Origin: an uncultured Parachlamydiaceae bacterium
Lineage (GTDB): Bacteria > Chlamydiota > Chlamydiia > Chlamydiales > Parachlamydiaceae
Length of the DNA: 64,000 bases
Direction of reading: 5' to 3'
Assembly: GCA_963742415.1 (NCBI GenBank)
Contig: CAVULX010000003.1
Location: forward strand, 96,001-160,000
Below, piece after piece: positions 5,204 through 42,424 of this stretch (the stretch's first letter is position 1; the number at the start of each line of letters is the position of its first letter). The notes below the pieces were generated by a model. The model saw nothing but the letters and a program-made list of their open reading frames with translations, did not search any database and was not told the origin of the DNA. Both the position numbers and the translations under genes were made by a program.

Positions 5204-6292
5204 ATGCGAATCTCTATTCCCAAGTTCCGCTGTGATATTGTTCTTACAGATAAAGACTTGAGCAGCTTAAGTGAATTCTTTGCCAAAAACCGAGAAGCTT
5301 ATTCAAGCTGCGCCATTGTTTCAAACGAAGATGCCTATGCCCGCTACGGGCAACAAATTTTGCAAATTGTGCAAGCGCAACATTTTCCTATTCATCCTAT
5401 TTTACTGCCTAGAGGGGAAAATGCAAAAACACTAGAGGCCGTTTCCCAGTGTTGGAACGAAATGCACGGAAAAGGGTTGGATCGGAAATCGATTATCATC
5501 GCTTTGGGCGGAGGATCGATCACCGATGCTGCAGGCTTTGCCGCTGCTTGTTATATGCGGGGAATCGATTCTATCAACATCCCCACGACCTTACTGGGAA
5601 TGGTCGATGCCGCCATCGGGGGCAAAACGGGGATCAACATCCCTTCAGGAAAAAATTTGGTCGGCGCTTTTCACCATCCCCGCCTCATTCTCATTGCACC
5701 CCATTACTTGGAAAGCTTGCCTGAAAGGGAATTCCGCTCGGGCCTCGCCGAAGTGATCAAGGCAGGGATCATTTGGGATGCCGATTTGGTCGACTTCTTA
5801 GAGCACTTTTTGCCTAGTGTCCTAGCAAAAGATGGGGAAAAAATTAAAACGATTCTCGCACGCGCTTGCAAGATTAAAGTGGAGATCATCCGGATGGATG
5901 AAAAGGAAAAAAGTCTCCGTTCCATCCTCAATTATGGTCACACTTTTGGCCACGCCATCGAAGCCTTAACTCATTACACCGAATATACCCATGGGGAAGC
6001 TGTTGCCATAGGGATGAGTTGCGCTGCCTTCACCGGACTCGAGCTGGGATTAACAGACAGTGACTTTGTTCGGCGGCAAGACGCTTTATGTCAAAAGGCC
6101 GGTTTGCCTACCCAACTGCCAAAAAATATCGACCTAGATGCTTTAATTCTTCAGATGTTGCGCGACAAAAAGAATATTGGTGGAAAAATCCACTTGCTTG
6201 TTCCTCGCAAAATAGGCAAAGTAGACAAGATTTGCGATGTTGAAACCACCATCATCCACCGAGCCTTATCAAAAAAATCATCTGAAAATTAG
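5204..6292 (+). CDS. aroB: 3-dehydroquinate synthase
   Basis: GGGSITDAAGF, PTTLLGMVDAAIGGKTG, KNLVGAFHHP, LNYGHTFGHAIE, HGEAVAIG. Confidence 0.97.
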   Translation: MRISIPKFRCDIVLTDKDLSSLSEFFAKNREAYSSCAIVSNEDAYARYGQQILQIVQAQHFPIHPILLPRGENAKTLEAVSQCWNEMHGKGLDRKSIIIALGGGSITDAAGFAAACYMRGIDSINIPTTLLGMVDAAIGGKTGINIPSGKNLVGAFHHPRLILIAPHYLESLPEREFRSGLAEVIKAGIIWDADLVDFLEHFLPSVLAKDGEKIKTILARACKIKVEIIRMDEKEKSLRSILNYGHTFGHAIEALTHYTEYTHGEAVAIGMSCAAFTGLELGLTDSDFVRRQDALCQKAGLPTQLPKNIDLDALILQMLRDKKNIGGKIHLLVPRKIGKVDKICDVETTIIHRALSKKSSEN

Positions 6293-6305
6293 GATTGATA
6301 GAACA

Positions 6306-7430
6306 TTGGAAGAATTGGAAGCCTTGGCTGCCTTGTGCGCCATGCCCCATCTGGGGCCTGTAAAAATTCGATTGCTCTTAAAGCGCTTTGGCAGTGCTTG
6401 TCAAGCCATTCAGGCTGAACCTCTTGAAATAGCAGAGCTCCCGGGTTTTAATCCTAAGATAATGAGTGGATGGAAAACCGGGTTGCATCAAGAGGCGTGG
6501 CAACGTGATTTGGAGCTTGCCCACAAGCTAGGTGTCCATCTCATCCCCTTTAATAGCCCAGAGTATCCTAAAGGGTTATTGGAACTCCCTGACCACCCTG
6601 TTCTGCTTTACGTCATGGGAAGCCTCACCCCCCAAGATCGGTCGAGCATTGCCATCGTAGGGACAAGACATCCAAGCATCTATGGCCTTGAGATGGCGGA
6701 AAAAATAGGCCATGATTTAGCCGCTCGACAAATGACCGTTGTGAGCGGACTTGCGCGTGGAATCGACACGGCAGCTCACAAAGGAGCCCTCTCTGCCGGA
6801 AGGACCCTAGCAGTCATCGGTTCAGGATTAGCTAATGTGTACCCTCAAGAAAATTGGGAGTTAGCTAAAGCCATTGCAAAAAATGGGGCATTGATTAGTG
6901 AGTTTCCGATGGCGACACCTCCCGACCGCCTCAACTTTCCTCAACGAAATCGGATTGTTAGCGGAATGACCTTGGGGACATTATTAATTGAAGCCCCTTT
7001 GAAAAGCGGAGCCATGATCACGATGGATCGGGGTAAAACTCAAGGACGCCCCTTGTTTGCCTTGCCCGGGAGGGCCGATGGAGAAAATTTCCAGGGAAAT
7101 CATGATCTAATCAAACGGGGGCACGCACAACTCGTTGAAAATGCGCAAGACATTTTAACCCATTATCAAGACTTATTTGCCTTGCCATCAAAGTCTTATG
7201 TAGTGCATAATAATGTTTTTTTAGAAAAAGAGGAAGAGGAATTTCTAAAGATGCTTCCTGTAGAAGAAACTTCTATTGAGGAATTAGAGCAACGCACAAA
7301 ACTTCCTATCAGAAAAATACATGTTTTGTTAATGAGTTTAATTATAAAGCGGATCATCAAAGAATACCCCGGTAAAGTATATAAGAAGATGACACGGGAA
7401 TGTAAGGAGAATCCATGGGCAAATCGTTAA
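6306..7430 (+). CDS. dprA: DNA-processing protein DprA (Smf)
   Basis: AIVGTR, VSGLARGIDTAAH, NFPQRNRIVSG, SGAMIT; probable TTG start 6306; precedes topA. Confidence 0.95.
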   Translation: MEELEALAALCAMPHLGPVKIRLLLKRFGSACQAIQAEPLEIAELPGFNPKIMSGWKTGLHQEAWQRDLELAHKLGVHLIPFNSPEYPKGLLELPDHPVLLYVMGSLTPQDRSSIAIVGTRHPSIYGLEMAEKIGHDLAARQMTVVSGLARGIDTAAHKGALSAGRTLAVIGSGLANVYPQENWELAKAIAKNGALISEFPMATPPDRLNFPQRNRIVSGMTLGTLLIEAPLKSGAMITMDRGKTQGRPLFALPGRADGENFQGNHDLIKRGHAQLVENAQDILTHYQDLFALPSKSYVVHNNVFLEKEEEEFLKMLPVEETSIEELEQRTKLPIRKIHVLLMSLIIKRIIKEYPGKVYKKMTRECKENPWANR

Positions 7431-9988
7431 TTATTGTCGAGTCCCCTGCCAAAATCAAGACTCTCAAAAAGTTTTTAGGTCCAAATTTTGTGTTTGAATC
7501 TTCGATGGGGCACATCCGTGATTTGCCAGAAAGGGAATTTGGAATTGATATCGAACATGATTTTGAGCCTAAGTATACATTATTGGCCGACAAAACGGAA
7601 ACCGTTAATCGGCTGAAGAAAGCGGCAAAAGAATGTGACACGGTCTATCTCTCCCCCGACCCCGACCGCGAAGGGGAAGCTATTGCCTGGCACATCTCAC
7701 AAATTCTGCCGAAAACGACAAATATCAAGCGTGTTTCTTTCAATTCGATTACAAAAGATGCTGTCGTCAGAGCCTTAAAAGATCCGAGAGATATCGATCA
7801 AGCTTTGGTCAATGCCCAACAAGCGCGCCGCCTGCTCGATCGGATCGTCGGTTACAAAATTTCTCCAATCCTCAACCGAAGGATCCAACGGGGAAAAGAA
7901 AGAGGGGTCTCTGCAGGACGCGTCCAATCGGTCGCTTTAAAGCTTGTCGTTGACCGGGAAAAAGAGATCGAAGCTTTTAAACCCGTAGAATATTGGAATT
8001 TAGGAGCCATATTAAAAACCGAAGAGGGGGAAAAGGCCTTTCGAGCTAATCTCTATTCTGTAGATGAAAAGAAGGTAGAAAAAGAACCATCCCCGGAAAA
8101 GATGTTTATTTGATCAGCAATAAGGCTGCCGCCGATATCGTGCTCGCCAAAATGAAAGGTCAGCCGTTTAAGGTGGAAAATGTTGAAAGAAAAGAAAAGC
8201 GGCGCAATCCTGTCCCCCCTTTTATCACATCGACCTTGCAGCAAGAAGCCAGCCGCCATTATGGCTTCTCTTCTTCCAAAACCATGAGTATTGCCCAAAG
8301 CCTTTATGAAGGTATCGACTTGGAAAATGAAGGGGCAGAAGGGTTGATCACCTACATGCGTACCGACTCGGTCCGTTTAGCGCCGGAAGCTATCGATGAA
8401 GCTCGAAGCTATATTCGGGATACTTTCGGGGAGATTTACTTGCCGCCCCAGCCCAAGGTTTATACATCCCAAAAAAGCGCCCAAGATGCCCACGAAGCCA
8501 TTCGCCCAACAAACTTGCAACATCCCCCTGAAAAGATTCAATCCTACCTTTCTAAAGAGCAATTTTTACTTTATCAACTGATTTGGAGACGTTTCTTAGC
8601 TTCGCAAATGGTCCCTGCCATCTACGATACGATCAGTGCCGATATTTCAGCTGGCCCCGATGTGCTCCTTCGAGCGACAGGATCAATCATCAAGTTTCCC
8701 GGCTTTTTGGCCGTCTACGAAGAAAAAGTGGATGAAGAAGCGGGGACGATGAAGGAAAAATGCTTCCTCCTTTAGTGAAGGGCAAATGTTAAACCTGATA
8801 GAATTGACATCCGACCAAGCCTTTACGAGACCGCCTCCCCGTTATACCGAAGCCTCTTTAGTGAAAGAGCTTGAAAAATCGGGCATTGGACGCCCTTCCA
8901 CATATGCCGCCATCATGAATAAAATCCAAAGCCGAGACTACACCGTCAAAGAAAGCGGCCGTTTGAAGCCTACGGAGCTGGGGTGTGTCATTGCAGCTCT
9001 TTTGGAAAATAATTTTCATCAAATCATGAATATTGGTTTTACAGCTTCCATGGAAGATGATTTGGAGCTGATCGCCGAAAACAAAAAAGACTGGAAAACG
9101 ATCATCCGGGAATTTTGGAAAGATTTTAGCCCTACGTTGGAAACCGCCGAAAAAGAAGCCTTTGTACCTAAAGTGATGACCGATATCGATTGCCCTATAT
9201 GCGGTTCCAAACTCCAAAAAGTATGGTTTAAATCAAAATATTTTTATGGATGTTCCCGCTATCCTGAATGCACTTATTCCGCCCCCATAGAAGAACTCTC
9301 CTTTAATAAAGAGGACTATGCGGCAGACTTTGATTGGAATCAAAAGTGCCCCGTTTGCGGGAGCGACATGAAGGTGCGCCATGGACAATTCGGCGCTTTT
9401 TTAGGATGTACAAACTATCCTAATTGCAAAGGGATCGTCAATATTCCTAAAAAAGGGGAAGTCGTCATCGCTCCGGAAGATATGCCCGCATGCCCGGCAA
9501 ACCATTGCCCCGGGCAAATGGTCGCGAGAAAATCCCGCTTTGGGAAAACATTTTATTCCTGTTCCACATTTCCTGAATGTGATGTGATTGTGAATAACTT
9601 GGATGATTTGACTGAAAAGTATCCCGATCATCCCCGGACACCTTATGTTAAAAAAGATAAAAAAGGGCGTGGCAAAACTGCTGAAGCTGCAAAAAAAACA
9701 CCCTCTAAAGCTAAAGCAATTAAACAAGAAAAACCAAAGAAGTCCCGCGCCATGCCGCCGGTGTCTTTAAGCCCCGCCTTGGCTGACTTAGTCGGCAGCC
9801 AAGAGATGGCTCGTGGAGAAGTGATAAAAAAAGTATGGGACTATATAAAAGAACATCAGCTTCAAGACCCAAAAAATAAGAGGTTGATCCGCCCCGATCA
9901 AAAGCTTTCCTCTGTATTTGGAAGCTCAGACCCTATTGATATGATGAAAATGACGGCTGTTCTCGCCAAGCAGATGAAAAAAATCTAG
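7415..9988 (+). CDS. topA: DNA topoisomerase I with zinc ribbons and C-terminal SWIB domain; frame broken by three apparent 1-nt deletions (~8085, ~8742, ~8773)
   Basis: IVESPAK, DPDREGEAI, SAGRVQS, GLITYMRTDS, GIGRPSTY, C4 zinc fingers, SWIB (KKVWDYIKEHQLQDPKNKR) spread over ORFs 7415-8113, 8110-8775, 8786-9988. Confidence 0.92.
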
Positions 9989-32528: not shown

Positions 32529-32597
32529 GTTTTGGAATATGATGAAAAATCAATAAAAATTCAATAGCCAGTAAAAGTATTTAAAGCATTGTTGAAT

Positions 32598-32684
32598 CGG
32601 AAGAGGAGGGATTCGAACCCCCGTTACCATCGCTGGTAAATCTGTTTTCGAAACAGACGCATTCGGCCACTCTGCCACTCTTCC
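32598..32684 (-). tRNA. tRNA-Ser(CGA)
   Basis: GGAAGAG acceptor stem, anticodon arm TCTGT-TTCGAAA-ACAGA, long variable arm, GGTTCGAATCC; CCA not encoded. Confidence 0.95.
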
Positions 32685-32821
32685 ATGTAGAATATAGAGA
32701 GGCAATTCTATAGGGAAAAACCCTAATTTTTCCACAAAATTCGTTGATTTTCACTTTGCGTTAACAATAAAAAATATTCTACTAATGCGATCTCATTTCT
32801 CAAAACTGCTGTCTCCTGTGC

Positions 32822-34162
32822 TTATCCAGCCTTAAGTTGGATGGCTTTACAGGAGAATGCATCAAACATTTCTGAAAACTCATTCATTTCTAGATCTGAC
32901 TCTACAGCCTTAGGATCTTTTCTACTGATGGAACAGTCTAGCCAATAATTTACTTCTTTCCATTTTTTTGTCGCGGCATGAAAATGTTCACCTTTACCCA
33001 AGAGCTGAGCAACTGCATTGGTGGGTGGAATATAAAAAACACACCTATTTAACATTTCAAAAGGAACAGTTATGACAAATGCTTTTGAGTTTTCCTTTAG
33101 CATGTAATAAAAAGCAGTTGCACCAGGATCATAAACACAACCTGCATAAAGTCCGGTTCCATAGGATAGACGATGACTTTCATTCTCGTTTTTGGTGCAG
33201 AAGATACTGTCGTCACCTGATGCTCCTCTATATAGAAGAAAAGAAGTCTTAGCAACTTCACTACATTCTACAGCTAAAGCATTCAATAAAATTTGGGCAT
33301 CAGACTGACTTCTGATTCCCATAAACCAACTAGCTTCAGGACTTAAATTCAATGTTAAACTTTCACCATTTCCATCATTAAAAAATTGTTTATACACATC
33401 TGCGCTTGTATCGTAAAATTCGTGTAAATAGTTTATTTCATTTATTACTTTCTGTTGTAGTTCAAGAAATGTAAATCCTTCAGGTGTTGGTTTAAGCGTT
33501 TTAACAATGGCATTATTTAGTCTATAAGAATAATTTCTTATACATTCGTCTTGGTTGTCTCTTATACATTCGCCTTGGTTGTTGCGTTCATCTGTAAAAC
33601 ATTTAAGATGCCAACACTTGCGCGCTGCTGTGATGTATTTAATTTCTTCTTCTTTCTCTGGATATTTATTAATTGTTTTTTGTGCACTTTTGAAAGCAAA
33701 ATCGCACCTGTTTCCTTCTCGAATATCTTCGTTAATACATTTTCTAATAAAAATAAGTTCGTATAGAATACGAGGTATGAAACCAATTTCCAAATTTTGA
33801 TTAATCGTTTTTACTTTATCACGCATGAGATGAAACCTATTATTTGCTGTGTCGAAAATGTTTTCATTTGAAGAAGCAGAATTGACTATTCTTGGCAGGG
33901 AATACCTGTCAAAAATTTGATAAACGGTTTCATAAGTATCTTTTGAAACTTTTGATCCCGTTAAGTCAAATACATAATATTCACCATAACCTATAGTGAT
34001 CGTGCCTTTAGGGATGGAAACTTGTTTATCTAAAAAATTTATTAAATAATGTTGACTAGTGTCTATAGGGGTACTCAACAATGAAAATGTGGGAATAAAA
34101 GAAAATACTAAGATAACAATCAAATTAGATAAAATCATAAACAATGAATTTTTATATAACAT
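32822..34162 (-). CDS. exported hypothetical protein
   Basis: 446-aa ORF with N-terminal hydrophobic segment; AT-rich. Confidence 0.75.
   Translation of the reverse strand: MLYKNSLFMILSNLIVILVFSFIPTFSLLSTPIDTSQHYLINFLDKQVSIPKGTITIGYGEYYVFDLTGSKVSKDTYETVYQIFDRYSLPRIVNSASSNENIFDTANNRFHLMRDKVKTINQNLEIGFIPRILYELIFIRKCINEDIREGNRCDFAFKSAQKTINKYPEKEEEIKYITAARKCWHLKCFTDERNNQGECIRDNQDECIRNYSYRLNNAIVKTLKPTPEGFTFLELQQKVINEINYLHEFYDTSADVYKQFFNDGNGESLTLNLSPEASWFMGIRSQSDAQILLNALAVECSEVAKTSFLLYRGASGDDSIFCTKNENESHRLSYGTGLYAGCVYDPGATAFYYMLKENSKAFVITVPFEMLNRCVFYIPPTNAVAQLLGKGEHFHAATKKWKEVNYWLDCSISRKDPKAVESDLEMNEFSEMFDAFSCKAIQLKAG
33536..33582. repeat. 24-nt-period in-frame tandem duplication
   Basis: TCTTATACATTCG(T/C)CTTGGTTGT twice; encodes NQGECIRD/NQDECIRN. 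Confidence 0.85.
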
Positions 34163-34239
34163 TTTAAATCATTTATTTAATGATATAGTATATTTTTTTA
34201 TCGAAAATTTCAATACAAATAATTTTCTGCTCTTTTAAT

Positions 34240-34384
34240 ATTAAGTTGAGTAAAAGTAAGTTACTAAAATTTATCTGCTAGTTGTCGATTAACAACAAAT
34301 TGTTGTGCTGTAAATTTGCTTGTGATATTGTCCAGTGAAGTCACCCTGTAAAGAACATCTGATAGCAGAATCGTTTATATTCAT
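34240..34384 (-). pseudogene. decayed immunity-gene remnant
   Basis: ATG overlaps the orphan toxin stop (TAATG); MNINDSAIRCSLQ resembles SAIRCALE of the 38236 paralog; frameshifted afterwards; 3' limit approximate. Confidence 0.55.
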
Positions 34385-34518
34385 TACCAAATCTCCGATT
34401 TTGGATGAGCAGGAATAATATGTGCTCCATCCTTTGAATAATGAATTTTGCCTTTTGTCGTCGGGAGATTCAGCGGATTGGTTTTGTCTTTCCAAATTCC
34501 AATATGTTCTCCGCATTC
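34384..34518 (-). pseudogene. orphan Ntox50-like toxin C-terminal fragment
   Basis: Manual translation ECGEHIGIWKDKTNPLNLPTTKGKIHYSKDGAHIIPAHPKSEIW* aligns with the toxin tip DFGEFIGYYVNQQNPGVKLPTTKGTIRYSKKGAHIIPSHPEGK*. Confidence 0.85.
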
Positions 34519-34634
34519 AAGTAACTTAATAGAAACATTCGTTGCAGCACTTTCAGTTTCATGATTAATTGTTAAATGAGGGATAAAGTAGTTATAGACT
34601 TTCGAACCTTCATAACAGTCCTCAGATTTAAAAT

Positions 34635-35318
34635 TTACGAGGACCTAAACGCGCGTGTTGTTATTTTTTTCAAACGCCAAAAATTCTGTATACTCTCTAT
34701 TTGCAATCCTTCTTCCCAAGCAAATTGTTCAATAGCAATTCTTACTGTAGGCCAAGACCAATCATCCCCGCATAAAATGCCACTTTCTCGAACTAAAGGA
34801 TACCAAGCTTTAAGATCCTGAACTACAGCTTCTGTGGTATGCTCAGCATCGATGTATACTAAATCAGGCTTGACCTCTTTTAAATATTCTGCAGCCTCCA
34901 AACTCGTCATTCTGCAAGGAATGACGGTATGTTGAAATCCCCAATGGATCATATTTGAGCGGAAATGATCATATGCTTGATGCAACTGAGGTTGATAATG
35001 CACATTTCCTGGTTGTTGTGTGGAACTGCCAAACCAAGTGTCTACAGCATATAAAGTGCCTTGTTTCATCTGCAATAGCTCGGCAAAATGTTTAGTAGAT
35101 CCTCCCCCCATCCAACTCCCCACTTCTACTACAACCTGAATTTCATTCTCAGAAAATAGCTTTTCTATATAAGGAGCATTGCTGTAATAGCCAAAATCAA
35201 ATACCGGCAAAAGATAGGTATCGGCATAAGGATCTAGTTCTTGACACACACCACAGGCAAAACTGCACAAGTAAATCATATAACAACTTCCGATATAGCA
35301 AACTCGGTTCACCTGCAT
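34635..35318 (-). CDS. class I SAM methyltransferase (Methyltransf_24-like) with signal-like N-terminus
   Basis: VEVGSWMG, YAVDTW, DLVYIDAEH, GILCGDDW; start at ATG 35318. Confidence 0.85.
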   Translation of the reverse strand: MQVNRVCYIGSCYMIYLCSFACGVCQELDPYADTYLLPVFDFGYYSNAPYIEKLFSENEIQVVVEVGSWMGGGSTKHFAELLQMKQGTLYAVDTWFGSSTQQPGNVHYQPQLHQAYDHFRSNMIHWGFQHTVIPCRMTSLEAAEYLKEVKPDLVYIDAEHTTEAVVQDLKAWYPLVRESGILCGDDWSWPTVRIAIEQFAWEEGLQIESIQNFWRLKKITTRAFRSS

Positions 35319-36031
35319 TCTCCCTTTTCGATAACAGCGATTAAAAGTCCATTCCACCAATGCTCTCTTTCAATCGTATCGCTAAAAATCTCTTTGGCAA
35401 AATGCACGCGATATCCAAGTTCTTTAAAAGCCTCTCGTGTTCCATCTTGAACCTGTGACCAATTCCAATCATCAACCACGGCAACAAATACATCATCGAA
35501 CACGTCGTCAAAATAAGTAAAAGCCATTTTTTGGTCTAAGAACTCATGCCTGCCATCATAGAAATAAAAAGAAATGGGCATTTTAAACACATCCTGCTTC
35601 GAAATAGCAAAGCAATCCTGCTCATAAAACCGAAGAGGTGCATTGGGAATTTCTTTAGCACAGTTTCTTTGAAATTCTTGTTTAGGTCCTCCAAATTCAG
35701 ACCAATTGTCGATAGCAACTGCATCTGCTAGTTCTGTATTTTGATACAAGGCAGCAATTAATGTTGAGCCGTAGAAACACCCGACTTCCAAGTAACAACC
35801 ATTAGGCCACTTTGTAAGATAATATAGAAAATGCTTCACTTTATGGCCTGAATATCCTGGCAGGTCCAAGATTCTTTGAGGCAAATCAAAATTGCAGGTC
35901 TCCGCTTTTTCTAAACTATCTTTCACATGACAAACTAAAGCGTTTACCTTGGCTTGACGGACCTGTATAGCATCGTCTCTGGCATAAGCACTGCAGGCTC
36001 CTATCAAGAGTATTGCAATTACGCTGCGCAT
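35309..36031 (-). CDS. class I SAM methyltransferase (Methyltransf_24-like) with signal peptide
   Basis: YLEVGCFYGST, AIDNW, YFYDGRH, VVDDWNW; MRSVIAILLIGACSAYA signal. Confidence 0.85.
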   Translation of the reverse strand: MRSVIAILLIGACSAYARDDAIQVRQAKVNALVCHVKDSLEKAETCNFDLPQRILDLPGYSGHKVKHFLYYLTKWPNGCYLEVGCFYGSTLIAALYQNTELADAVAIDNWSEFGGPKQEFQRNCAKEIPNAPLRFYEQDCFAISKQDVFKMPISFYFYDGRHEFLDQKMAFTYFDDVFDDVFVAVVDDWNWSQVQDGTREAFKELGYRVHFAKEIFSDTIEREHWWNGLLIAVIEKGECR

Positions 36032-36075
36032 TGAAACTCCTTTTTATTACACCAACTTTTCAATATTTCAATAAT

Positions 36076-37011
36076 TTACAAAAATCCAGACCCTCGATTT
36101 TTTTTTTGTGTAGCACGAATTTTATCGAACCAGTAAGGAGCATATAGTTTTTCTAAAGCAAATTTTTTTCCTCGAAATTCTTCTAATTTGCTCTCAAGCA
36201 AATCCCTCGTTACCTCTTCCCAATCCTCAACAATCACGACAGGAAGCTCCTCATATAAAGGATTAAGAAAAGAGCTTTTAACAATAGGATAACAGTCCAT
36301 AAGCAATGCTTCCCAAGTTCGAAAGGTATCTACCCCAGCTCCTGGAGGGCAAACAACAAACTTCGAACGGCTCATATCATCCCAAAAATTTACCTGTCGA
36401 TCTCCGCCTTCTTCTATAGGAACAAACCAAAACGTAGTAAAGGACTGCTGTTTAAAATAGTTCCAACAAGGCTCTCTTTCTTTTTGATTAGAGCTCAGGC
36501 GAAAATTAGCGAACACGTAAATGATTTTTTCGATATCTCTAGCTTGCTCGACATAGTTTGAAAAGAGCTCTATATCTCCATGTGCATGGATTTTATTGCA
36601 AATCCCAATAGGAATGGGCAGAATTCTTTCTGTAGCTGGCCGATCTAGATGAAGAACAAACCAACATCCTATCTTTTCCGATTCTGCAAGACTCTCATAC
36701 ATTCCAGGAAGAGCGATATCCGAATCGAACTCACAATAAGGGGTTAAAAGCACTACAGGAAAGGCTATTCTTGACAAATACTCTCTTTCAAAGGCAGACA
36801 AATAATTATGCTCTACAAAAATAATATCCCCCAGTTGAACTTCTTCTGGCGGAAAATACTCTTCTGTAGAAAGATGCCAGTCCGCAAAAAACCGAAATGT
36901 ATCACCAGAAAGGTAAGGATAACTGGATTCTCTTTGAAGAGGGCTTCCTTCTGCCTGAACCGCTCCCGATAAAAGCACTATGCATAAAACAAACAATGCT
37001 TGGACAAACAT
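36076..37011 (-). CDS. exostosin/GT47-like glycosyltransferase with signal peptide
   Basis: PIPIG, SKFVVCPPGAGVDTFRTWEALLMDCYPIV, LYEELPVVIVEDW. Confidence 0.75.
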   Translation of the reverse strand: MFVQALFVLCIVLLSGAVQAEGSPLQRESSYPYLSGDTFRFFADWHLSTEEYFPPEEVQLGDIIFVEHNYLSAFEREYLSRIAFPVVLLTPYCEFDSDIALPGMYESLAESEKIGCWFVLHLDRPATERILPIPIGICNKIHAHGDIELFSNYVEQARDIEKIIYVFANFRLSSNQKEREPCWNYFKQQSFTTFWFVPIEEGGDRQVNFWDDMSRSKFVVCPPGAGVDTFRTWEALLMDCYPIVKSSFLNPLYEELPVVIVEDWEEVTRDLLESKLEEFRGKKFALEKLYAPYWFDKIRATQKKNRGSGFL

Positions 37012-37230
37012 ATGTGATATTAGACCATTTAGGCTAACTTTTTACGAATTTTATATAAGTAAAAAATTTATTGTCTAGTATTTTTCCACAGGAAAGTGGC
37101 TTGGCAGTATTTCTTCGGGTAACAGAGATTTCAACGGTAATCCAATTATAATAAACGAGGAAGTACAAAACTTTCATTGATTTTATGCACCAAATAATCT
37201 AAAATTAGAAAGAGGACAAAGGAAACTGAA

Positions 37231-37461
37231 ATGCCATTCAAGCCGCTACCGATTCCGATTTTCGAAAAATATATCAAAACCGCAGGGTGGCAATTGGAAA
37301 AAGGCAAAATCGATTGGAACCTATACAACCAAAACGGCGATTTCGTGTGTTCGATTATCATATCGCATGGCAAAAGAACAAAGTCCGAAATTACGGCGTA
37401 TAGCATTAACAAAACAAAAAAAGCATTTGAGGAAAGAGGATTACATGGCCTCCAAAGCTGA
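37231..37461 (+). CDS. HicA-like small basic protein (putative toxin)
   Basis: 76 aa with HicA-like pattern (AGWQLEKG...IISHG...EI..YSINK); overlaps downstream antitoxin-like gene. Confidence 0.5.
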   Translation: MPFKPLPIPIFEKYIKTAGWQLEKGKIDWNLYNQNGDFVCSIIISHGKRTKSEITAYSINKTKKAFEERGLHGLQS

Positions 37462-37852
37462 AATCAAAAAAGAAGTAAAGATTGCTTTATCAGAGATAGG
37501 GACGATCACCCCTTGGTTTGACAAAGAATTTAATGCATGGATTTATTCAAATCCATTGTACCCAGTCGAATGCGAAGGGAAAAGTTCTGAGGACGTAATA
37601 AAGAAATACCCTAAGTATTTAGAAGTTTTCATTGAACATCGTTTGAAAGGAAAGCTGGATGATCTCAATGAAAAGAAAACTAAGGGGAAGGGTGGAGCAC
37701 GCCCTGGGGCGGGTAGACCAAAAGGAAGCACCAAAGAACCAACAAAACAAATTCGTGTCCCTTTAGACATCGCTGCTTGGTTAAATCATCCTGGTATTGT
37801 AGAGCACATTAGGCAAATGATTAAAGCCTATCCAGTGTATTCACGCCAATAA
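37445..37852 (+). CDS. HicB-like antitoxin with C-terminal DNA-binding segment
   Basis: CEGKSSEDVI (HicB-like GxTxEE), GGARPGAGRPKG...TKQIRVP; GAGGA RBS before ATG 37445. Confidence 0.55.
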   Translation: MASKAEIKKEVKIALSEIGTITPWFDKEFNAWIYSNPLYPVECEGKSSEDVIKKYPKYLEVFIEHRLKGKLDDLNEKKTKGKGGARPGAGRPKGSTKEPTKQIRVPLDIAAWLNHPGIVEHIRQMIKAYPVYSRQ

Positions 37853-37952
37853 TCATAAGAGAGCTCGATAGCAAGCCATTCTAAAAAGTTGCTGAGCAAA
37901 AAGATTCGCTGTAGTCTACGAGGCTGCAATAAAGTCGCACATCGCTTCGTTA

Positions 37953-38236
37953 TTAGAATCTTTCGTATCTCTGAAAAACCCTTGATCCACATTGTGGAAT
38001 TGGTTGATTAAGCGACAATACCTCACGGATCACATGAACGGACAGACTAAAAAAATCGGACATAACCTCGGATGCTATTATTTCAGAAAGTTCGATTTCT
38101 TCTTCCGAAGGAGGTTTGTCATAATAAAAATAAAGTTCAACGGCTTTCTTTTATATCAGTATTTAAGCTCTTAAATTGGAGTAACACTACCTAAAAGAGC
38201 GACCTCTAGGGCACATCTTATTGCAGATATTGTTAT
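37953..38236 (-). pseudogene. second immunity-protein paralog, decayed
   Basis: Manual translation ITISAIRCALEVALLGSVTP/NLRA*..*KKAVELYFYYDKPPSEEEIELSEIIASEVMSDF...RVFQRYERF*, colinear with 38239-38526. Confidence 0.85.
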
Positions 38237-38238
38237 AG

Positions 38239-38526
38239 TTATTTTTCAAAACGAGAATATATTAAATAGCCCTCAAAAGTTATTTTTTCTGGGTATTTTA
38301 TTACAAAACGCTTACAAGATATTAAAAAAGGATCTGAGAAATCTGCTATCACTTCTGTTGCCGCATCCTCTGATAAGTCTATTTCTTCTTCCGAAGGCTC
38401 TTTATCGTAATAAAAATGTAAAGAAATGCCATGATCTTTTTCTTGTACAGATACTTTTCTAAGATTTGGAGTAACAACTCCCCATAAAGCTCGCATAGCA
38501 GATAAACGCAAACTTTCTATGTTCAT
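38239..38526 (-). CDS. cognate immunity protein of the Ntox50-like toxin
   Basis: 95 aa, 11 bp downstream of toxin with GAGGA RBS; RALWGVVTPNLRKV...FYYD...EVIADF. Confidence 0.8.
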   Translation of the reverse strand: MNIESLRLSAMRALWGVVTPNLRKVSVQEKDHGISLHFYYDKEPSEEEIDLSEDAATEVIADFSDPFLISCKRFVIKYPEKITFEGYLIYSRFEK

Positions 38527-38537
38527 GATATTCCTCT

Positions 38538-40643
38538 TTATTTTCCTTCAGGATGAGAAGGAATAATATGAGCCCCTTTTTTGCTATAACGAATGGTTCC
38601 TTTCGTTGTAGGCAATTTGACTCCTGGATTTTGTTGATTGACATAATAACCAATAAACTCGCCAAAATCTATTCTTTCTCGATAGTCTGGATTACCTGGT
38701 ATAGTACTATTAATCGGTTTGCCTTTTCCCGCAAAATTAGTCAGCAGAGCTTGTGGGTCAGAGTGCACGAACTCGCTTCTACCTAATTCAAAGTTATGCT
38801 TGCCAACTATATGTTTATTTTGTTTATCCCACTCAAGTTTAATATTTTTGAAAAAAGCTTCACGTTCAGTCTTATGTTTGAGTGCGGACGCTATGAATAC
38901 TTCTTTATTAGTTTCCGAAATCGTCATTGCTTCTAATATACATATCCGATTCGCATCTCTTAGCTTTTTAAAGGCCGCAATACTTTTAACAGCAGCTCCA
39001 CCTGCAAAAATGTCTACTCCATATCTACCGACAATATATCCGACCAAATGGCCTTTTTCAGATTCGCTTAATCGATCAAACTGATCGTATAGCCGCTGGA
39101 TCTCAATCGGATAGCTTTCAATTTCTTCAAGATCAACATTTTTACGAAATTCGTTAACGCAATTGCCGATATCATGACAGGCATTCACAAAATGAGTTGT
39201 TGAATCAATAGGATGCGTAGTAAACACCCACATAGAGGTGCATAACCCATATACAGAGCTGCAAAGAGACGGCACAAAGTCTTCTATAGCTTCCGCACAT
39301 CCTTCTTTGAGGCCTTTTAAAATTGATTCTTTAAAATTCCAAGAAGGTTTTAGTTTTGCTTTAAGAGCTCTATTATGATTTTTTGATGCTAAATAATCAT
39401 CAAGAGATTGTTTGGAATCTCCTATTTCAAAATAGGCCTGAGCCCGACTAAAATACGCACCGCGATTATTCGGATCGAGCCGAATAGCCTCTGATAATGA
39501 AGTTATGGCTTTGTCATAGCTTCCCAAATCCGCATAAAGTTCTCCTTCCTGTTGATACATATCTGTAGTCAATATTATTCGGTCTTTATAACGATCCGTA
39601 TTTGCCATACGCATTAGCCGATTCACATCCATTAAGGCATCTTCAATTTTACCTGAATGGAGCCGCAGCATTCCTCTTTCATAATAGATTTTAGGGTGTG
39701 GATGAGAACGAATACAGGAATTGTACTGGCTAGTAAACTGATCACGAATCGTTTCTAGTGTTGCATATATCCTGTCAATAGATTCTGGATTACCAGTTAA
39801 TGAATTTGCATCGATAAACTCGGCAATAGACAACAGCATTTGATGGTATTGAGAGTAGAAAAATGCATAGGTTGTCAGAGAACTTGCCACCCCATGGCTG
39901 TTGGGATAATACAAGTCTGTATAGATTTTGCCATGATAGTCAAATTCAATCTTCTTTGCCTGCCAATGCGGTGAAAGCTCGGGCGTAATTAAGCCTTCTT
40001 CAGCTAAGTCCTTCAAGAGTCCATAAACACGATTGTTGAGGTTTACGATATCTTGATTATATTTGGGCCAGTAGCATGTGCAATCATCATTTTCAGAGCA
40101 ATATTGCAAGTAGTGCTTAAAGAAATGAAGGTATTTATGATTCCACAGACGAAAATATCCCCCATTCCAGCATAAAGGTTCGCAGTGATCATTATCATGA
40201 AAACAATGAAAACAACGCTTGCCATTTCCTTGCCTACTCTGCTCATGCCCTTTTCTCAATTCGTTAAGAGCTTCAACGTCAGTAGGACCATCGCAACCCC
40301 TGTACAAATTAAATTTAACACCATTGCAATCGCAGCACTGGTAGCAGTCGGCAAAATAAACTTTCGGAATAATGTGGAGGTAGCTGGAAAAGGAATTAAT
40401 GTTCTCTGTGCTTTCAGCTTCCATCCATGTATGTTCTATTCCAATATTGTTCGAAAAATGTTCCTTGCACGTTGTTAGAAATGCATACCTGGAAAAGCAA
40501 TCCACATTTTCCTGGTTATCATCTTCATTAATGTGCTCATCATATTCCTCGTCTGCTGCTAAATGGCTTGCAAAAGCACAAAAAAATGCGAACAGAAGAA
40601 GAAAGTGTCTTGAGATATTGTTGTGAACCAAACGCTCTATCAT
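38538..40643 (-). CDS. polymorphic toxin: signal peptide, Cys-rich region, TPR repeats, pre-toxin linker, Ntox50-like predicted RNase tip
   Basis: LLLFAFFCAFASHLAA signal; YQQEGELYADLGSYDKAITSLSEAIRLDPNNRGAYFSRAQAY TPR; KQNKHI...GKG...ERIDFGEFIG...PTTKGTIRYSKKGAHIIP; start moved to ATG 40643. Confidence 0.82.
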   Translation of the reverse strand: MIERLVHNNISRHFLLLFAFFCAFASHLAADEEYDEHINEDDNQENVDCFSRYAFLTTCKEHFSNNIGIEHTWMEAESTENINSFSSYLHIIPKVYFADCYQCCDCNGVKFNLYRGCDGPTDVEALNELRKGHEQSRQGNGKRCFHCFHDNDHCEPLCWNGGYFRLWNHKYLHFFKHYLQYCSENDDCTCYWPKYNQDIVNLNNRVYGLLKDLAEEGLITPELSPHWQAKKIEFDYHGKIYTDLYYPNSHGVASSLTTYAFFYSQYHQMLLSIAEFIDANSLTGNPESIDRIYATLETIRDQFTSQYNSCIRSHPHPKIYYERGMLRLHSGKIEDALMDVNRLMRMANTDRYKDRIILTTDMYQQEGELYADLGSYDKAITSLSEAIRLDPNNRGAYFSRAQAYFEIGDSKQSLDDYLASKNHNRALKAKLKPSWNFKESILKGLKEGCAEAIEDFVPSLCSSVYGLCTSMWVFTTHPIDSTTHFVNACHDIGNCVNEFRKNVDLEEIESYPIEIQRLYDQFDRLSESEKGHLVGYIVGRYGVDIFAGGAAVKSIAAFKKLRDANRICILEAMTISETNKEVFIASALKHKTEREAFFKNIKLEWDKQNKHIVGKHNFELGRSEFVHSDPQALLTNFAGKGKPINSTIPGNPDYRERIDFGEFIGYYVNQQNPGVKLPTTKGTIRYSKKGAHIIPSHPEGK

Positions 40644-40776
40644 AAATACTGCTCGAAATTTGAAGTGAAAGAAGATGCTATACGAAATATTTCTCTCCGA
40701 CAAGCTAAATCGACAGGTAAGATGATTTTTAATATATTCCATGGTTCAAGCGAGTAAAAGCTCTGTATGAGGCAAT

Positions 40777-40908
40777 GTGGTAAATCCTAAAAATAAACCT
40801 GAGAACATCAAGTATTCTGTTAGTTCAGGAAACATATATGCTGATTTTGGATTCTCTAATCTAGAAGAAGCAAAAAATATGTTTTCTTTTTGCAACCTTA
40901 AATACTGA
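40777..40908 (+). pseudogene. truncated XRE/HigA-type antitoxin fragment
   Basis: Manual translation ...KYSVSSGNIYADFGFSNLEEAK (SSGNVFADLG-type N-terminus), HTH missing. Confidence 0.65.
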
Positions 40909-40994
40909 GCCTTCAAGGTATAAAAGAAGTGACCACTTGATGTATTTTTGATCGAATATCATTTGTATTCATGGCGAGTTCTTCTTCAGCCAAC

Positions 40995-41387
40995 TTAAAT
41001 TTCCTTCTTCTTTTTAACTCTTTTTGCCTTTGGACTTGGGATGGCACTTAGTTCAGCTTCGATCTCATGAATTGTTGGAAGTTGTCCCTTTAGCTTTTTA
41101 GGTAGAGTTGAAACGATTTTTGTCTCATATTCAGCTACTCCCATGGGCTTGTGAATGTCTCGAAGAGCATATTCTGCAATGAAATTGTCTTTACTTTTGC
41201 AAATCAAAATGCCAATAGTTGGGTTGTCCGTAGGATGCTTCATGAGATCATCAACAGCGGATAAATAAAAATTCATCTTACCGGCAAACTCAGGCTTAAA
41301 ATCAATCGCGTTGAGTTCAATCACAACAAAACATCTAAGTTTCAAATGATAAAACAGCAGGTCGATATAGAAGTCTTTGTTACCCAC
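40995..41387 (-). pseudogene. 5'-truncated YhcG/DUF1016 PD-(D/E)XK nuclease-like gene
   Basis: DFYIDLLFYHLKLRCFVVIEL, GKMNFYLSAVDD, DNPTIGILIC; N-terminal domain absent. Confidence 0.85.
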
Positions 41388-41450
41388 TTTTTTGAAATAT
41401 CTGACTTCTTATAGGCCGAATCACATAATCTTGATACATCACGTCTGTTC

Positions 41451-42104
41451 TTATTCTTTTGAAATTGTATTAGATAGATTTGCAATAATTCGTATAAACT
41501 TTTCATCTTCTGAGATGCTAATAATTTGAAATCCTGTTGATTCCAATTTCTGAGAAAGCGTTTCCGAAGTCCAATAACAAAAATAACGAGGTCTTTCTAA
41601 TTTTGCTGTTGTCCATTCTTCTCCTTCTCCCTTTTTTACAGAGAAGGCCAATATTCCGTTGTTATTCAATGCAGCATGGATTTTTTTAAAAGCTTTCTCT
41701 AATTCTTGAGGAGTAAAATGCAAAAAAACTGCATTTGCAAAAACCAGATCATATTGCATGCTAAAAGCATCCGTTAGAATATTAAATTGATGTGCTGGAT
41801 ATCCTTGCTCCTGCAAAAAAGCAACAAATGATGCCGTTGCATCCGTTCGCTCTACATTAAATCCACAGGATTCGATGTATTTGGCGTCTCTACCAAAACC
41901 GGAACCAATCTCAATGATACGAGCATCTGATGGCAAGAACGTTAGAGTATGATCCATCCAGTCTTTAAAATTACCGCTTACATTTGCAACTGTACCAGTG
42001 ATATATTCCTGAATGCCTAGCTCATACGACCGAAGCGTTAATTCATTAGACGTGAGGTTCTCCACTTGTTCATAATGTAATTGAATGGGTGTTTCTTGAG
42101 TCAT
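41451..42104 (-). CDS. class I SAM-dependent methyltransferase
   Basis: IIEIGSGFGRD, YDLVFANAVFLH, GILAFS. Confidence 0.9.
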   Translation of the reverse strand: MTQETPIQLHYEQVENLTSNELTLRSYELGIQEYITGTVANVSGNFKDWMDHTLTFLPSDARIIEIGSGFGRDAKYIESCGFNVERTDATASFVAFLQEQGYPAHQFNILTDAFSMQYDLVFANAVFLHFTPQELEKAFKKIHAALNNNGILAFSVKKGEGEEWTTAKLERPRYFCYWTSETLSQKLESTGFQIISISEDEKFIRIIANLSNTISKE

Positions 42105-42314
42105 AGGTGGCTCTCCTTTTCCAAATAGCTGACAGGGAGTAGAATTGTATCAAATTTACCTTCGTGGCAATGCGTTCAATATAATCGCTGTCCGATTACA
42201 TTTGAAAGCAGATTACACGTCTTGGTCTTCTATTGCTTGATTTCTAGATGAAGAGCGAAACAAAATAAACACGTTTCAACGCGGTTCAGGAACAGCTTAT
42301 AAAATGAAAAAGCT

Positions 42315-42344
42315 GGAGACATTGCCATTTCTGAAAATGTCTCC
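42315..42344 (-). terminator. hairpin downstream of tRNA-Phe
   Basis: GGAGACATT...AATGTCTCC stem followed by T-rich tract on minus strand. Confidence 0.55.
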
Positions 42345-42351
42345 GGTGATG

Positions 42352-42424
<73 letters not shown>

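Follow-up and report, generated by a model that had tools for sequence, protein, structure and literature searches.

How does a chlamydia, an obligate intracellular bacterium, come to carry a two-gene unit with the look of a polymorphic toxin and its immunity gene, and against whom would such a pair be directed? The question is raised by a locus in 64,000 nucleotides (nt) of DNA from an uncultured Parachlamydiaceae bacterium (GenBank assembly GCA_963742415.1, contig CAVULX010000003.1, positions 96,001 to 160,000). This whole stretch is referred to as the window, and all coordinates are positions within it. The toxin gene occupies 38538..40643 (-) and encodes 701 amino acids (aa) plus a stop codon. 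Counted from its first in-frame ATG at 40742, the open reading frame (ORF) would run over 38538..40742 (-) and 734 aa, but homologues begin in the alignment at the equivalent of the Met at 40643, which is therefore the likely start. The stop codon lies at 38538-38540, the next ATG at 38526, and the 11-nt gap between the genes contains GAGGAA. From that ATG the putative immunity gene, 38239..38526 (-), encodes 95 aa. A first-pass annotation, made from the letters of the window, had described a 701-aa toxin with a signal peptide, an acidic stretch, a Cys/His-rich region, tetratricopeptide repeats (TPRs), a Gly-rich linker and a KQxKH-containing C-terminus, followed after 11 bp by a 95-aa immunity gene. 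Each of these elements is present, and the family of the small gene has a solved homologue in the MafB2 immunity protein. We are highly confident that the locus truly belongs to a polymorphic toxin-immunity family. That it is a two-gene module built on a Chlamydiota-specific trunk and acting by the mechanism proposed below is, on balance, probable.

The nature of the toxin is best read from its C-terminal tip, aa 576-701 plus the stop codon (38538..38918 (-)). The Pfam family Ntox50 (PF15542) matches aa 606-695 with an E-value of 7e-22 and 78.4 bits against a curated cut-off of 22.2, over profile positions 4-92 of 92, and the tip taken alone scores 82.4 bits. The C-terminal region contains the pattern KQNKH...PTTKGTIRYSKKGAHIIP, running to GAHIIP. 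Two sequence relatives are found in the PDB, 9v8i_B (the C-terminal domain of YxiD, YxiD-CTD; E 4e-9) and 8hhj_B (the MafB2 toxin; E 1e-4), and the same two structures superpose on the tip of the AlphaFold2 model: 9v8i_B with Z 15.1 and a root-mean-square deviation (rmsd) of 2.6 over 97 aa at 40% identity (Foldseek TMt 0.75), and 8hhj_B with Z 13.3 and an rmsd of 2.3 over 92 aa. The tip model has the BECR / RNase A-like alpha+beta fold of the solved Ntox50 members. The Ntox50 assignment of the first-pass annotation is thus borne out by profile and fold alike.

The active site of this family is known from both solved relatives. MafB2-CT is described as an RNase whose toxicity requires H335, H402 and H409, H402 being essential by Ala change (PMC9970974), and YxiD-CTD as a metal-dependent tRNase requiring H447, H521, H528, K446 and K524, H521 being likewise essential by Ala change (PMC12700104). 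YxiD H447/H521/H528 are the equivalents of MafB2 H335/H402/H409. Among the chlamydial Ntox50 homologues, K610, H611, H692 and P695 are invariant (46/46). The middle His position varies: it is His in 29 homologues, Arg in 12, Thr in three and Lys in two, and the window toxin has an Arg there. Because of this residue, R685, the tip is best filed as a clear Ntox50 homologue with a noncanonical active site, a predicted RNase by sequence and model. A tip of the same kind also occurs outside the trunk family. A 714-aa protein with RHS repeats (PF05593), P0226, bears an Ntox50 tip that aligns with the window's at 60% identity across 82% of its length, so that closely related tips are found on two trunk classes.

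The 95-aa protein encoded next to this toxin is acidic, with an isoelectric point (pI) of 5.0 as against 9.7 for the tip, and has neither a signal peptide nor any other hydrophobic leader. It and nine relatives have no Pfam match (10/10), and NCBIfam offers nothing credible. A profile of the ten members, compared with the PDB, matches 8hhj_A, the immunity protein of MafB2, at E 2.1e-5, along the entire protein (positions 8-96 aligned with 9-101 of 108). Modeled together with the tip, the protein forms a complex with an ipSAE of 0.79, compared to 0.32 for the best control; among solved complexes, 58 of 80 attain that mark, compared to 2 of 110 among mismatched pairs. Repeated runs share at least 94% of contacts, and the predicted local distance difference test score (pLDDT) of the partner is 92 or higher. 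The modeled interface involves tip residues 682-688 and 694-697, and places R685 in contact with the immunity protein. Profile and model together support the 95-aa gene as a member of a MafI2-like immunity family.

What carries this tip? The first-pass annotation had stated that no RHS, CdiA, LXG or MuF trunk was present, and a Pfam scan of the whole toxin at E <= 1 agrees: it returns only Ntox50, TPR families and BTAD, and no RHS, CdiA, LXG, MuF or MafB-N. Immediately upstream of the tip lies instead a pre-toxin linker domain, aa 425-575 (38919..39371 (-)). It spans about 150 aa before the junction, is all-helical in the AlphaFold2 model, and has two moderately hydrophobic segments, 456-474 and 534-552, as well as a Gly-rich segment, GRYGVDIFAGGAAV, at about aa 538-551. 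Alignments show the trunk conserved up to an invariant AN(R/K)xxxLEAM junction (N565, E571), beyond which the sequences diverge. None of 17 linkers matches any Pfam family at E <= 10, MafB-N and the pre-toxin families included, and the PDB holds no credible sequence match, the best (Utp20, E 0.008) having been discarded as not credible. Protein language model embeddings place the linker nearest an unnamed Bacillota cluster (0.91), EndoU proteins (0.89) and MafB clusters (0.83-0.86), which serves as a lead only.

The trunk is widespread within a single phylum. A search with the linker alone gave matches in 156 of the 401 Chlamydiota genomes sampled, representing 95 of 212 genera, with up to seven matches per genome; in one well-sampled family, none of the 30 genomes searched had a match. 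A query with aa 1-590 gave 56 strong relatives, nearly all annotated with PF15542, and a HMMER search with aa 1-571 gave 241 cluster representatives at E <= 1e-30. The named true trunk relatives are all chlamydial metagenome-assembled genomes, assigned to Parachlamydiaceae (75% identity), Rhabdochlamydia, Waddliaceae and Chlamydiia. A few relatives are labeled Verrucomicrobia, and a genome search placed one of these in the window's own phylum. Loci were collected with a 12-sequence trunk alignment; entries L024-L052 of that collection are generic TPR proteins and are excluded from all counts. By sequence, then, the trunk is a Chlamydiota family with an un-named linker domain. At five loci (L007, L015, L018 at 5545-7534, L021, and L054 at 6757-9012) the trunk ORF ends 10-25 codons past the junction, and an ORF of its own then encodes the Ntox50 tip; these may be pseudogenes, sequencing frameshifts, or a real split form.

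Does the trunk carry different tips, as polymorphic toxins do? Of 196 family proteins, 172 have the linker (24 do not), 163 have a complete junction, and in 152 the tip is 60 aa or longer. The multi-stretch TPR giants returned by the HMMER search lacked the linker hidden Markov model (HMM). A strict Ntox50 pattern is present in 121 of the 152 tips, and about 11 of the remaining 31 are, by our own reading, variant or truncated Ntox50. Beyond these, at least six non-Ntox50 tip classes follow the trunk junction. Class A (n = 8) is marked by HVMQxKHAWDK...NDAWVxTK and class B (n = 7) by VRKILHxxGF...VRVMPGKPHS; class C (n = 1) is weakly Ntox35-like, the Ntox35 match of protein P0055 falling under the cut-off (15 vs. 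23.6 bits); class D (n = 1, plus locus L017) is of HNH type, the L017 tip clearing the cut-off of Pfam LHH, PF14411 (25.2 vs. 23.3 bits); and class E (n = 2) is AHH-like. Classes F and G were added from genome loci. No Pfam or NCBIfam family was found for classes A, B and E. For class B, embeddings give Ntox47, Tox-HNH-EHHH and Ntox30 clusters as look-alikes at 0.92-0.94, and the downstream ORF has a subthreshold match to SCO4402_fam (31.6 vs. 50 bits); both are leads only. A shared trunk with unrelated C-terminal tips among its members, the defining trait of a polymorphic toxin, is what these proteins display. The check suggested in the first-pass annotation, whether homologues found in Chlamydiae with the N-terminal ~590 aa have differing C-termini, came out in its favor: the homologues are chlamydial and bear several tip classes.

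The downstream genes follow the tips. Pairing was sampled at 40 loci from 40 genomes, using the best-scoring match per genome; a closed ORF whose tip measured 80 aa or more was present at 39 of them. Of the 35 Ntox50 tips, 32 have one or more MafI2-like ORFs, in some cases up to four, in the 2.5 kb downstream, compared to none of the four other tips. Three other classes each have homologous downstream ORFs of their own: 187-193 aa long after class A tips, 122-126 aa after class B and 223 aa after class F. A tip-specific gene directly downstream is thus seen for classes A, B and F as well as for Ntox50. Two Ntox50 genes without a MafI2-like neighbor, at L065 and L086 (the same locus as L005), are instead followed by ORFs of 233-246 aa that are homologous to each other (E 7e-40, 34% identity) and may represent a second immunity family for Ntox50.

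Orphaned pieces of such cassettes occur in the window and in its relatives. Next to the intact immunity gene, a broken second copy at 37953..38245 (-) is interrupted by an in-frame TAA and a change of frame; tblastn aligns it at 41% identity over aa 33-95, and the family HMM finds it in two pieces, one at profile positions 33-96 with E 2.6e-15 and one at 4-22 with E 0.006. About 4 kb beyond it lies an orphan 3' fragment of an Ntox50 tip, 34393..34548 (-), about 45 codons long (profile 47-92) and with no trunk upstream. This fragment scores 36.3 bits against PF15542, above the cut-off (tblastn 54% identity; HMM E 2.5e-15), and keeps the canonical His (IHYSKDGAHIIP). Elsewhere, L053 has three tandem trunk genes with two tip classes among them, L055 has truncated toxin genes followed by three and two immunity paralogues, and L012 and L020 have orphan tips, so that orphan tips or up to three to four immunity paralogues occur at these four loci. 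Orphan tips, immunity cassettes or arrays, which likewise characterize polymorphic toxin loci, are therefore present in the window as in its relatives. At three Rhabdochlamydia loci (L004:8429-9205, L007:7199-8050, L018:7537-8319), single in-frame ORFs of 258-283 aa consist of an immunity domain, the C-terminal half of an Ntox50 tip, and another immunity domain.

L003, the closest relative, shares the Arg at the middle position and was compared with the window to gauge selection on the module. The ratios of nonsynonymous to synonymous substitution rates (dN/dS) are as follows: tip 0.11, immunity gene 0.15, linker 0.15, TPR region 0.07 and N-domain 0.08. The tip and the immunity gene are under purifying selection. 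In the same comparison, the synonymous rate (dS) is 0.74-0.80 for linker, tip and immunity gene and 1.4-2.2 for N-domain and TPR region; the lower 3' values would be expected if the 3' cassette had been exchanged more recently, a weak argument because the higher values are near saturation.

Four further regions make up the part of the toxin that precedes the linker. The full-length AlphaFold2 model, made from 46 homologues, has a pLDDT of 83.4 and a predicted TM-score (pTM) of 0.79, and fold searches with it return TPR proteins and two Ntox50 structures only. A Sec-type signal peptide is predicted at aa 1-29 (40557..40643 (-)), a call based on hydropathy and on AFA/S or HLA/A cleavage motifs read by eye: the hydrophobic segment aa 10-32 is the hydropathy maximum of the toxin (1.58), and residues 2-29 form a helix in the model. 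A lipoprotein reading was discarded, also by eye, AFFC being a poor lipobox. The signal peptide is followed by an acidic stretch, aa 30-48 (40500..40556 (-)), predicted to be disordered (pLDDT below 50 for residues 28-49), and by a Cys-rich N-domain, aa 49-190 (40074..40499 (-)), supported by the alignment, the positions of its Cys residues and the existence of long and short forms. This domain contains the Cys/His-rich motifs CYQCCDC (aa 100-106) and CFHCFHD (aa 144-150). In an alignment of 30 long-form homologues, five Cys residues (C59, C100, C103, C188 and C190) never vary and two more (C106 and C154) are nearly invariant; short-form trunk relatives do not have the domain. Modeled alone, it reaches a pLDDT of only 65, with a best fold-search Z of 2.5 and 12 chains at Z >= 2. 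A helical-repeat/TPR region, aa ~191-424 (39372..40073 (-)), then leads to the linker. It includes a family-wide HPHPKIYYERG motif, matches the Pfam families TPR_1, TPR_2 and TPR_11 at aa ~316-420 (E 1e-10 to 1.5e-11), and superposes on TPR structures at Z 12-14 over model residues ~189-426.

How does this architecture compare with established systems? The nearest is the MafB2-CT/MafI2 pair of Neisseria meningitidis B16B6 (PDB 8hhj), in which both tip and immunity protein are homologous to those of the window. Both toxins have an N-terminal Sec signal peptide, a predicted one in the window toxin, and both pairs combine a basic toxin with an acidic immunity protein over the RNA-binding face, as described for MafB2/MafI2 (PMC9970974). 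The trunks, by contrast, are unrelated: PF06255 (MafB-N/DUF1020) has no match in the toxin (E <= 1), in any of 17 linkers (E <= 10), or in the genome, a search made with no positive control. No mafA-like gene was seen linked among 22 loci, where no search with a MafA model was made, and MafB2 has H402 where the window toxin has Arg. YxiD-CTD/YxxD of Bacillus subtilis 6633 (PDB 9v8i) provides the closest solved tip, of the same family PF15542 (PMC12700104). YxiD differs in having an LXG trunk, delivery by the type VII secretion system (T7SS) and all three His residues, and its immunity protein YxxD, which has an Sm-like fold as reported there, is not matched by the chlamydial immunity profile. 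With CdiA, Rhs and other classical polymorphic toxins the family has in common a conserved trunk, a sharp junction motif, tips that vary, a cognate immunity gene immediately after the toxin gene, and orphan cassettes for tip and immunity protein. The window toxin lacks their FHA, TPS, RHS, PAAR and VgrG domains, and no genes of type V or type VI secretion systems (T5SS, T6SS) are linked to it. Comparable junction motifs in classical polymorphic toxins are VENN and PxxxxDPxGL.

The Sec/type II secretion system (T2SS)-type toxins with TPR or Sel1 repeats described by Zhang et al. (2012; Biol Direct 7:18, PMC3482391) are built along the same lines, their repeats standing between a signal peptide and a C-terminal toxin. 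The tables of that paper record Ntox50 in chlamydiae and TPRs among the repeats of Sec/T2SS-type toxins; its text lists no Ntox50 immunity protein and names no chlamydial trunk or pre-toxin domain. The same paper holds that intracellular bacteria mostly lack immunity proteins and hence do not fight conspecifics. NCBI labels one homologue of the window toxin a "polymorphic toxin type 50 domain-containing protein." The Ntox50 toxin domain, the MafB2/MafI2 pair, Sec/T2SS toxins with TPRs, and the occurrence of Ntox50 in chlamydiae (PMC3482391) are thus already known. In the literature searched on Ntox50 and on chlamydial polymorphic toxins, immunity and interbacterial competition, no description was found of the trunk family, whose proteins Additional file 1 of Zhang et al. 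(2012) may list, of its linker, its junction or its spread over the phylum, nor of a chlamydial MafI2-like immunity family, of tip-matched immunity genes, or of arrays.

The module is found in varied surroundings. Across 22 loci, wide recurrence is limited to the trunk and the immunity gene, the next ORF family being common to three loci, and among the neighboring ORF families no transporter gene was seen linked to the module. In the window, it lies within a stretch of about 9.8 kb (32597-42424) between tRNA-Ser(cga) and tRNA-Phe(gaa), which has a low GC content (0.33-0.40) and looks like a variable island. Its further content includes two Methyltransf_24 ORFs, a class I methyltransferase, a subthreshold GT47/RXYLT1-like ORF, and an N-truncated remnant of a YhcG_C PDDEXK nuclease at 40995-41387 (profile 55-157 of 157). 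Immediately downstream of the orphan Ntox50 fragment is a 446-aa ORF, 32822-34162 (-), with a hydrophobic N-terminus and without a Pfam match at E <= 0.01. Two overlapping ORFs of 76 and 161 aa at 37231-37852 (+), flanked by the broken immunity copy and the glycosyltransferase-like gene, have no Pfam family; by layout they faintly recall a small toxin-antitoxin pair. A scan for promoters and terminators did not rise above chance, with eight promoter-like sites against 10.4 expected and two terminator-like sites against 2.5 expected. No RNA sequencing run was listed with matches, and only two DNA runs shared 6-9% of the sampled sequence words.

How, then, might the module work? The 701-aa protein would be exported by the Sec machinery through its N-terminal signal peptide, and would leave the periplasm by a general route. 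The candidate for this step is the T2SS encoded in the same genome, given that the module has no dedicated transporter gene linked to it; a cluster with a secretin and T2SSF lies elsewhere on the window's contig. The variable Cys-rich N-domain, the TPRs and the helical linker would carry the toxin and presumably provide target-cell binding and translocation of the tip. Exchange of C-terminal tips takes place at the invariant AN..LEAM junction, as the alignments show. Once in the cytoplasm of the target, the Ntox50 tip would kill through RNA cleavage, and the acidic, cytoplasmic, MafI2-like 95-aa protein would, going by homology and the complex model, cover the basic active-site face of the tip and thereby guard the producer and its kin. 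The first-pass annotation had spoken of a distinct delivery class aimed at co-infecting bacteria or the host; both the class and the target are matters that we, too, infer. Tip-specific immunity families, immunity arrays and orphan cassettes point to antagonism among chlamydiae that share a host cell rather than to a host effector, and we lean slightly toward other bacteria as the target, with antagonism between chlamydiae favored.

Several observations weigh against this proposal. Beyond the Sec step, export, surface display and target-cell entry are steps that we infer. A host-directed secreted RNase would also be expected to come with an immunity gene, as barnase does with barstar, so that the presence of one does not fix the target. 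Tip swapping is a minority state and diversification is modest, as Ntox50 occupies 35 of the 39 sampled tips. The sample of 40 loci, built from the best match per genome, is biased toward relatives of the window's own linker, and five of its loci are the same places as loci in the set L003-L012. Three of the 35 Ntox50 genes lack a MafI2-like neighbor; the other ORF family accompanies two of these, and the third is without any candidate. Likeness to 8hhj, the solved homologous complex, may be what lets the complex model pass, and the model for that reason speaks for likeness rather than proving binding by the window copy. Finally, the window toxin does not have the full trio of catalytic His residues, and with R685 in place of an essential one, RNase activity of this copy is a prediction.

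The same facts can be assembled into other explanations. Conceivably, the toxin is a host-directed effector, an RNase that is released into the inclusion lumen of an amoeba host, or into the host's cytosol, and degrades host RNA, for nutrient scavenging or host control, with the small protein as a barstar-like self-protector. Such a role would suit an obligate intracellular chlamydia that makes a protein with a Sec signal and has a T2SS in its genome, and an immunity protein without a signal peptide fits cytoplasmic self-protection; TPR/Sel1/ankyrin toxin-like proteins of intracellular bacteria are, moreover, held by Zhang et al. (2012; PMC3482391) to be mostly host-acting. These authors, however, argue for a host target from missing immunity genes, and in the present family 32 of 35 Ntox50 genes have one and two more are accompanied by the other candidate family. 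Toxin-less immunity paralogues and orphan tips would be superfluous for self-protection and are typical of inter-strain conflict loci, and a joint exchange of tip and immunity gene is hard to explain via host targeting alone. A host effector is, on this evidence, the less likely reading but a serious rival.

Or the locus could be a decaying or catalytically dead relic, an RNase inactivated by a His-to-Arg change in an eroding neighborhood. R685 does replace a His that is essential in both MafB2 and YxiD (PMC9970974, PMC12700104), the window holds a broken second immunity gene and an orphan fragment, the trunk is split in L007, L015, L018, L021 and L054, and a truncated YhcG nuclease remnant lies nearby, in low-GC DNA between two tRNA genes. 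Both ORFs are nevertheless intact, and the low dN/dS of tip and immunity gene (0.11 and 0.15) was measured at a dS of ~0.75-0.8 against a relative with the same Arg. Recurring in 12 of 46 homologues, Arg appears to be a maintained variant and not a one-off lesion, and in the complex model it touches the immunity protein. Erosion is accordingly an improbable account of the locus. Still less credible is a selfish addiction module, a toxin-antitoxin-like pair that stabilizes the genomic island while its toxin stays undelivered. The tight two-gene unit with its 11-nt gap, the varied genomic contexts with no further gene widely common to the loci, and the low-GC location between two tRNA genes would all agree with it, but a 570-aa trunk with a signal peptide, predicted to be exported and found in 95 of 212 genera at dN/dS 0.07-0.15, would be purposeless in a cytoplasmic toxin-antitoxin pair. 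The closest characterized relatives, MafB and the LXG protein YxiD, are delivered toxins as well, and we consider addiction very improbable.

If the module is indeed an exported weapon against other chlamydiae, a wider picture can be drawn, to be read as tentative. Chlamydiae might wage contact-level or short-range warfare inside shared host cells by means of phylum-specific, Sec-exported toxins, without a T5SS, T6SS or T7SS. The linker, with its two hydrophobic helices and AN..LEAM junction, might be a new, self-contained domain for membrane translocation and toxin release. The Cys-rich N-domain might serve as a receptor-binding element or a surface anchor, perhaps disulfide-linked into the chlamydial outer-membrane complex, and the immunity arrays might record past encounters between lineages.

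Polymorphic toxin systems are regarded as markers of competition between related bacteria. A trunk family with tip-matched immunity genes, arrays and orphans makes antagonism among chlamydiae, in amoebae or other hosts, a testable idea. For such work the locus and its relatives provide a pre-toxin domain that has no name and ends in a sharp junction, MafI2-like immunity proteins forming a family for which Pfam has no model, and a natural His-to-Arg active-site variant of Ntox50, a predicted RNase, that is under purifying selection. Together, this analysis suggests that chlamydiae possess a large, undescribed toxin family, and that these intracellular bacteria fight each other.

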